Shown here: positions 11,095-11,137 of the stretch, in pieces
Position numbering within the stretch: the stretch's first letter is position 1
How the letters are laid out: every line of letters starts with the position of its first letter
Assembly: GCA_044868145.1 (NCBI GenBank)
Contig: JBIOWE010000004.1
Coordinates: forward strand, 73,395 to 137,394
Length of the DNA: 64,000 bases
Direction of reading: 5' to 3'
Source: Patescibacteria group bacterium
GTDB taxonomy: Bacteria > Patescibacteriota > Patescibacteriia > UBA10025 > JBIOWE01
The notes under the pieces: generated by a model
Told to the model about the DNA's origin: nothing
The model's input: the letters and a program-made list of their open reading frames with translations, nothing else
The model's database searches: none
Position numbers and translations under genes: made by a program

Positions 11095-11137
11095 AGGTTA
11101 TGATTCGTGTTAATTAATGGTATAGATTCGTGGTGGG
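11095..11137. repeat. groES-groEL spacer made up of the recurrent motif ATTCGTG-TTAATTAAT-GG-ATAGATTCGTGGTGGG. The 16-mer at 11122..11137 is identical to 56557..56572 upstream of metK.
   Basis: Exact 16-nt identity, together with related ATTCGTG and TTAATTA blocks, read directly from the sequence. Confidence 0.7.

Follow-up and report, generated by a model that had tools for sequence, protein, structure and literature searches.

An exact 16-mer shared by the groES-groEL spacer and the metK leader of a Patescibacteria bacterium is probably the arm end of a dispersed repeat linked to GxxExxY genes

The DNA considered here, referred to below as the window, is a stretch of 64,000 nucleotides from a Patescibacteria group bacterium, and the genes of interest lie on its minus strand, where Pfam matches place groEL (9448-11094), groES (11138-11413) and metK (55326-56465). 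The GroES and GroEL proteins have their relatives in Patescibacteria MAGs, the closest GroEL being about 86% identical, and the proteins nearest to MetK in a collection of 5.8 billion proteins are only 74-76% identical to it. The 16-mer ATAGATTCGTGGTGGG is present in two exact copies on the plus strand. The first (11122-11137) is located in the groES-groEL spacer, directly after the TAA stop of groES, and the second (56557-56572) about 92 nt upstream of the metK ATG. As groEL and metK are both encoded on the minus strand, the sense form of the 16-mer is in either case CCCACCACGAATCTAT, in agreement with a preliminary description of this DNA, which had reported the same word in the same reading sense at both places. 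With at most 3 mismatches allowed, the window contains three matches to ATAGATTCGTGGTGGG, a count reached by 0 of 100 shuffles; besides the two exact copies, these comprise an inverted copy with 3 mismatches at 56473-56488.

Taken alone, one exact 16-mer repeat in 64 kb is not very improbable, as about 0.5 are expected by our own arithmetic for a uniform sequence, and the window contains a single further exact direct repeat that is at least 16 nt long. The pair is recognized as non-random because the similarity extends across the whole 43-nt groES-groEL spacer. Specifically, Smith-Waterman comparison of this spacer with four other intergenic segments gives scores of 24, 20, 17 and 17, to be compared with a maximum of 18 and a mean of 12.7 in 300 shuffles. 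As a separate observation, the 17-mer CTTCGGACGAGTTTTTT occurs twice (59568-59584 and 59792-59808) and resembles a terminator present in two copies ahead of the gene at 59821.

The groESL operon carries its own candidate heat-shock operator. A CIRCE-like inverted repeat, which reads in sense TTAGCACTT-N9-GAGTGCTAA, is located upstream of groES at 11465-11491, and a promoter-like site, TTGACG-N17-TACAAT, is found upstream of this repeat at 11533-11505. Neither the 16-mer nor the unit to which it belongs bears any resemblance to the HrcA operator consensus TTAGCACTC-N9-GAGTGCTAA, so that the earlier statement that the 16-mer is not CIRCE holds.

Alignment of the similar segments resolves five units of about 40 nt at three loci of the window, namely one solo unit and two inverted pairs. 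Read on the gene strand, each unit begins with a C-rich foot (CCCACCAC, GCACCAC or TACACCGC), whose core is ACCAC, followed by three heptads of the form CAC[G/T/A]AAT, spaced at 13-16 nt from the first to the second and at 9-10 nt from the second to the third. The 16-mer takes in the foot CCCACCAC, all of the first heptad (CACGAAT) and the beginning of the linker, and this is the position that it occupies in both units that contain it. The solo unit, U1 (11097..11138, minus strand), lies in sense and occupies the entire groES-groEL spacer, which reads CCCACCACGAAT-CTATAC-CATTAAT-TAA-CACGAAT-CATAACCT between the TAA of one gene and the ATG of the next. It is G-poor, its predicted folding energy is 0.0 kcal/mol, and no Shine-Dalgarno sequence precedes groEL. 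A candidate remnant heptad pair (11420..11435, minus strand; sense ATTAAT-CAT-TACGAAT) lies just upstream of the groES ATG; as it aligns only weakly with U1 (score 10), its membership of the family is uncertain.

The metK leader and the leader of yjbQ (UPF0047) are each filled by an imperfect palindrome of about 100 nt. In the metK leader, unit alignment and pattern matching identify U2 (56535..56573, minus strand), the 5', gene-distal arm with the second copy of the 16-mer, which palindrome analysis separates by a centre (56515..56534) from U3 (56471..56514, plus strand). The latter is the inverted 3' arm, reads in sense ATTTGTG..ATTCGTGG..ATTAGTGGTGGG and stops 7 nt short of the metK ATG at 56465. 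In the yjbQ leader, the 5' arm U4 (54514..54558, minus strand) directly follows the TAA stop of a 133-aa ORF (54557..54958), and the inverted 3' arm U5 (54461..54502, plus strand) comes to within about 13 nt of the yjbQ ATG at 54450. Pairwise identity amounts to 83% for U1-U2, 78% for U1-U3 and 69% for U2-U3. Within the window, heptad words cluster only at these three loci, and the pattern ACCACKAAT-N5-10-CACKAAT-N2-3-CACDAAT, by which we define the unit, matches 3 times as against 0 in 100 shuffles; no further copies were found in the 9 kb of source contig beyond the window. The extended similarity over about 40 nt, together with this count of the three-heptad pattern, bears out the view that the 16-mer match goes beyond chance.

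The groES-groEL spacers differ among relatives. In L011, whose GroEL is 85.5% identical, the spacer opens right after the TAA with CCGTCGCGAATCTTATTTTCACGAATTTCGCGAAT, that is, with a solo unit at the place orthologous to that of U1. The presence of this unit in two genomes with GroEL proteins about 85% identical suggests retention and not turnover. More generally, many Patescibacteria groES-groEL spacers are filled by hairpins of short, genome-specific words that turn up again elsewhere in the genome concerned, in many cases immediately behind a stop; in L004 and L031 the recurrent words follow ORFs with acidic C-terminal tails, which we take to be ssb. The window itself contains hairpins of other words. 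A 110-nt imperfect palindrome of CAAAAAT/CAAAGAT-type words, belonging to another family, fills the spacer between a 347-aa gene and dnaG (3929-4039); a hairpin of GCTTATA/TATAAGC words lies between divergent genes (30621-30707; z = -3.8 to -4.3), and one of similar vocabulary fills the cutA-yjbQ spacer of L083 (15025-15111); finally, a word array poor in G (CAAATTCAAAGATCCAAATGTTCAAAATCC...), which has an inverted partner, begins immediately behind the Mur ligase stop (52600-52654), where the long rpoB leader has its far end. The heptad family is therefore one of several. Just beyond the window, the source contig (L093, 20401-20599) carries a long hairpin, CCCAGCACCAC...GTGGTGCTGGG, between two TTGACC motifs and upstream of a Zip transporter gene.

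The metK leader is where the window departs from its nearest relatives. Three contigs (L083, L086 and L089) are syntenic with the window in the order metK ... yjbQ - Mur ligase - rpoB - rpoC, and comparison of their metK leader regions (L083 9751-9947; L086 9815-9942; L089 9793-9935) with that of the window (55326-56600) reveals in all three relatives a SAM-I riboswitch (RF00162, 55-65 bits) followed by a terminator, with no heptad element. In the window, no SAM-class riboswitch is detected at the gathering threshold and none at E<=10 in 56400-57000, and the search of Rfam 15 families over the elements gave no match, only tRNA being returned. The absence of a SAM-class match here and the presence of RF00162 in the relatives indicate that the riboswitch leader has been replaced by the heptad palindrome. 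For this organism the consequence is that metK has lost its SAM riboswitch and the whole of its leader is now a repeat element, so that control of SAM synthesis must differ from that of the relatives. The promoter that the preliminary description had placed downstream of the metK copy is putative only: no sigma-70-like site is found on the minus strand in 56300-57100. Its TATAAT lies inside the 3' arm, and by our own reading the corresponding -35 region matches at 3 of 6 positions with a 17-nt spacing.

Several further observations concern this region. Between the tRNA-Arg gene and metK, the SLT gene of the relatives has also been lost in the window. Downstream of tRNA-Arg, the minus strand of 56694-56857 contains T-arm/acceptor-like pieces (GAGTTCGACTCTCGG..CAGGGGCA; GGGATTCGATTCCTG..CGAGGGCA), on which neither ARAGORN nor Rfam calls a tRNA and which are possibly degenerate or unusual tRNA genes; a similar stretch, also following a tRNA, is found in L086 at about 8010-8130. 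A perfect 20-nt inverted repeat (56847-56866 / 56924-56943) brackets tRNA-Arg, and a candidate ORF for a very basic 37-aa peptide (MSNKSIKKTMNKKQKVALKKHRKTAGKKIASLRNR; 56583-56693, minus strand) ends 12-15 nt before the metK palindrome. As to gene starts in the window as a whole, many lack a Shine-Dalgarno sequence and others have a strong GGAGG; several genes carry a TATAAT-like box 5-9 nt before the ATG and may thus give leaderless or short-leader mRNAs.

The same family is present in relatives, at other places. In L086/L087, whose MetK is 74% identical, two palindromes of about 100 nt built of heptad arms occupy the same neighbourhood in different spacers, one stretching between the stop of LigD_N and the ATG of cutA, the other between the stop of yjbQ and the ATG of Mur ligase, and the cutA-yjbQ spacer is free of the element in L086 and L089. 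One of the L086/L087 arms reads ...GAGATTCGTGGTGGA, which by our own count agrees with the 16-mer over 13 consecutive bases. Most L086 genes have GGAGG, but those that follow these elements do not. A metagenome scan with the unit pattern, in which the loci are sampled by the pattern itself, returned matches on at least 120 contigs, where we estimate that chance would produce a few; in about 1.2 Mb of GroES-anchored GTDB loci the pattern gave 0 matches. One metagenome contig (L147) contains the exact 16-mer; there it forms the end of an arm, of which about 40 nt match U2, and we conclude that the two copies of the window are identical through their closeness to a subfamily consensus.

The metagenome matches also define how the element is placed, with the proviso that ORFs were called crudely by our own scripts. 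Among the matches listed there are 36 pairs and 53 solos, and nearly all copies are intergenic. The pairs typically lie 4-20 nt from co-directional ORFs on both sides. Where an ORF stop is found within 80 nt upstream of a solo unit, 26 of 31 solos among the matches listed are in sense by our own tally, and nearly all of those 26 start between -11 and +24 nt after the stop; several solos (L138/L148, L142, L144, L163) have an intrinsic terminator and not a gene behind them. A subfamily that comes mostly from sample 3300014656 is marked by outer ends that are both conserved and asymmetric, with GAATYAATAC|ACCAC as A-end and GTGGT|GAATAAnnACA as B-end, and strict A-to-B copies are co-directional with their neighbours in 7 of 7 cases among the matches listed. 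The neighbouring genes, again among the matches listed, are functionally heterogeneous, mostly housekeeping and highly expressed: they include genes for ribosomal proteins (L14, L24, S19, L22, S11, S4, S12, S15, S6, L32, L19 and L10) as well as for RRF, IF3, trigger factor, NusB, NusG, SSB, DnaB, GyrB, RNase Y and HSP20. In L139, a 69-nt palindrome at 2372-2440 interrupts the 23S rRNA gene (LSU match 214-2761); this gene is short (about 2.5 kb), and a further unit lies in the tRNA-23S spacer.

Long tandem arrays of CACGAAT or ACCACTAAT-like words were observed in L094, L103, L131, L143, L146 and L173 (and in L114, L118 and L166), with up to about 10 copies of CACGAAT, and GxxExxY genes adjoin some of them. 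Several of these contigs are GC-rich, which implies that the family is not limited to AT-rich Patescibacteria. The preliminary description had proposed that hits scattered at random, or mostly inside coding regions, would point to a dispersed repeat rather than to a regulatory site. No such scatter was found, since nearly all copies are intergenic and oriented; the evidence nonetheless points to a family of dispersed repeats. It is widespread and apparently undescribed: in the literature on Patescibacteria intergenic repeats, on GxxExxY/PF13366 and on CPR rRNA insertions we found no published description of such an element.

A part of the family is associated with one kind of gene. At seven loci among the matches listed (L097, L098, L129, L131, L137, L173 and L183), an arm and an inverted arm bracket a centre of 370-470 nt that encodes a protein of PF13366 (PDDEXK_3) / TIGR04256 (GxxExxY), and tblastn detects GxxExxY genes in 10 of 120 pattern loci among the matches listed. 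In L129 a gene-less palindrome lies beside a gene-carrying copy, the two have A-end and B-end in common, and the GxxExxY gene runs from A-end to B-end. No GxxExxY gene was found in the approximately 73 kb of this genome formed by the window and its flank. The association extends to other words. In L048, a Patescibacteria MAG, arrays of another word, CGCTGAA / TCAGCG, stand on either side of the GxxExxY gene. Replicons of four cultured bacteria (Treponema, a Fusobacteria strain, Bernardetia and Prevotella) also carry GxxExxY genes, each situated co-directionally between host genes and flanked by short-word repeats of its own, inverted in two cases and direct in two. We know of no transposition or cleavage activity of PF13366 proteins, and no solved structure for them is detectable by sequence. 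They are listed as being of unknown function, and multiple horizontal transfers are recorded for them (PMC3424549).

Whether the arms are conserved as RNA or as DNA was approached through the variable centre of the heptads. Of 104 pairs of partner heptads from opposite arms, 49 (47%) have matching centres (G, T or A), as against 40% expected; heptad centres therefore do not covary between arms, no excess of G-U pairs is observed, and base usage at the centre is the same in both arms. The compensatory base pairs that mark a structured cis-regulatory RNA are not seen at these positions. Since there is no covariation and base usage is equal in both arms, conservation acts on each heptad (CAC-N-AAT), which makes a protein that recognises words in the DNA a better explanation than an RNA helix under selection. 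Predicted folding points the same way. The metK and yjbQ palindromes fold moderately better than shuffles (z = -2.5 and -2.2), sense and antisense strands fold about equally well, and no consistent sense-strand advantage emerges across the spacers of 19 relatives. We have accordingly discarded RNA structure as a property common to all copies, given the unfolded groES-groEL spacer and a sense strand that folds no better than the antisense. Other candidate roles were considered and set aside. The elements do not look like intrinsic terminators, as no gene-strand call falls on them and there is no run of T behind the AT-rich arms; a Shine-Dalgarno/anti-Shine-Dalgarno mimic, suggested by GGUGA/CACC in the feet, sits poorly with a spacing to the AUG that varies between 7 and 22 nt; a Rho utilisation site, for which the C-rich and G-poor arm would be suited, is made less likely as a general role by the hairpin partners and the downstream intrinsic terminators; and the likeness of the ends to a DnaA-box or a Zur-box was judged coincidental.

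On these grounds, we consider it probable that the 16-mer is the arm end of a MITE/REPIN-like dispersed element, tied to GxxExxY genes, lodged in host operons and transcribed along with them. As the same arms and the same asymmetric ends are found around GxxExxY genes, we read the gene-less copies as descended from a selfish and presumably mobile GxxExxY cassette, either as non-autonomous (MITE/REPIN-like) forms or through deletion of the gene. Such a cassette would lodge co-directionally in well-transcribed operons, and its heptads would be putative protein-recognition sites on DNA. One palindrome would have replaced the ancestral SAM-I leader of metK, and the 16-mers of groEL and metK would owe their identity to the subfamily consensus and not to a common regulator. 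The bias in orientation and the placement from stop to start could reflect either a dependence of the cassette on read-through transcription or selection, after insertion, for a role at the RNA level.

The alternatives fare unequally against this evidence. A chance match, or a one-off local duplication of an AT-rich spacer without any family behind it, is hardly credible: the roughly 0.5 exact 16-mer repeats expected in 64 kb of random sequence would accommodate the bare pair, but the similarity of about 40 nt to four other arms, the 3 pattern matches against 0 in shuffles and the occurrence of units in other genomes and on at least 120 contigs from metagenomes, among which L147 has the exact 16-mer, refute it. 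The preliminary description had favoured a shared cis-regulatory element in front of two stress/SAM-related genes. Joint regulation of groEL and metK through a transcription-factor operator, or through an RNA motif dedicated to it, would agree with the conservation of the heptads as words (CAC-N-AAT), with the 9-10 nt spacing from the second to the third, like the CtsR box, which is a direct-repeat operator, and with the highly expressed genes behind both copies. Such co-regulation is nevertheless very improbable, because the metK leaders of the three nearest relatives lack the element and use SAM-I, groESL already carries CIRCE, a third and functionally unrelated locus (yjbQ) has two units, and at least 120 metagenome contigs carry the family, with copies beside unrelated genes, in rRNA and around nuclease genes. 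Moreover, the groEL copy lies inside an operon, with 43 nt from stop to start and no room for a promoter, and no promoter-like site is found near the metK copy. What remains of the earlier proposal is a cis element in transcribed intergenic sequence beside highly expressed genes; the regulatory link between groEL and metK, and with it the stress/SAM connection, finds no support in view of the SAM-I control of metK in the relatives, the units of the yjbQ leader, and the copies beside unrelated genes, inside 23S and around GxxExxY genes.

The main rival is a selected cis-acting RNA element of polycistronic mRNAs, in which the G-poor arm behind the stop of a well-expressed gene would fold with its inverted partner into a hairpin that joins the upstream stop to the next start and would support translational coupling or reinitiation without a Shine-Dalgarno sequence, or would act in mRNA protection or processing. 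This is compatible with a mobile origin, and the orientation bias, the stop-to-start placement and the highly expressed operons would fit such a selected role too. In particular, it would account for the sense orientation of 26 of 31 solos and 7 of 7 polar pairs among the matches listed, for elements that span from stop to start with 4-20 nt on either side, for the lack of a Shine-Dalgarno sequence in the genes behind them where most L086 genes have GGAGG, for the enrichment of ribosomal-protein and chaperone operons among the neighbours, for a groES-groEL solo unit common to the window and L011, and for the better-than-shuffled folding of the metK and yjbQ palindromes. Nonetheless, the heptad centres show neither covariation nor an excess of G-U, the sense strand folds no better than the antisense, the solos of L138/L148, L142, L144 and L163 are followed by a terminator and not by a gene, copies occur in a 23S rRNA gene and around nuclease genes, and the groES-groEL copy stands without a partner arm and is predicted to be unstructured. 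We therefore regard the selected RNA element as rather unlikely, though far less so than co-regulation, and retain a repeat tied to GxxExxY genes as the preferred reading.

More tentatively, a wider hypothesis may be formulated. Heptad arrays such as CAC[G/T]AAT could be the DNA recognition sites of GxxExxY (PF13366) proteins, and arrays and genes together could constitute widespread selfish cassettes with miniature gene-less derivatives; in Patescibacteria and other phyla alike, these would insert co-directionally behind stops in highly expressed operons and would enter rRNA genes as well. Hosts might partly co-opt them as intercistronic leaders, as in the window, where the SAM-I riboswitch of metK would have been displaced. 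If the link is true, it would provide a first functional handle on GxxExxY/PDDEXK_3, a widespread and often multi-copy group of proteins, and it would explain the word hairpins that fill many of the CPR/Patescibacteria spacers examined (ribosomal-protein operons, groES-groEL, rRNA genes). It also carries a warning for annotation, as shared words of this kind should not be taken as regulons.

Comparison with known systems helps to define the class to which the element belongs. The SAM-I riboswitch (RF00162) occupies the same place in the metK 5' leader of the relatives and has no likeness in sequence or structure to the metK leader of the window. As to mobile elements, the palindromes are small (about 60-150 nt) and non-coding, with terminal inverted repeats of the type ACCAC...GTGGT, as expected of MITEs. 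Direct repeats next to the feet are not in excess, where the flanks are AT-rich and of TAA type and the true ends of one subfamily lie about 12 nt further out. Correia/NEMIS of Neisseria and ERIC/IRU of enterobacteria are MITEs co-transcribed with neighbouring genes. Like the heptad element, they are palindromes of about 100-150 bp with terminal inverted repeats, situated between genes, transcribed into hairpins and tolerated in operons; unlike them, the heptad element has arms made of heptad words and a partner gene that is not a recognised transposase. Free-standing homing-endonuclease cassettes, for example those of T4-like phages, consist of a small nuclease gene between genes. The likeness lies in a nuclease-fold gene that is co-directional between host genes without an obvious promoter and in the existence of gene-less versions of the same site, and homing or cleavage by GxxExxY is, by this analogy, putative. 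The 69-nt palindrome inside the 23S rRNA gene of L139 recalls the rRNA intervening sequences of CPR and other bacteria. In a study on CPR rRNA insertions, these are mostly group I introns or elements carrying LAGLIDADG or GIY-YIG genes, and a search by term of the same text found no mention of palindromes, inverted repeats or GxxExxY (PMC11270868).

The closest parallel is offered by REP/REPIN sequences. REP sequences are short intergenic units of E. coli and Pseudomonas; they are likewise about 20-40 nt long, often follow stops and lie inside operons, occur like the heptad units as singlets and as inverted doublets that form hairpins, and have, as here, lineage-specific sequences. Their repeats flank a small gene thought to mobilise them, in the same way as the arms flank GxxExxY. 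The REP unit differs in being a GC-rich imperfect palindrome with a GTAG head, whereas the heptad unit is an AT-rich direct array with a C-rich foot, and the partner of REP/REPIN is a RAYT (Y1, IS200-like; PMC3337134) where that of the heptad arms is a GxxExxY protein of PD-(D/E)XK fold. Since the unit is not palindromic, no RAYT is involved and no target-site duplication is demonstrable, we assign the family to the general class of small dispersed palindromic intergenic repeats.
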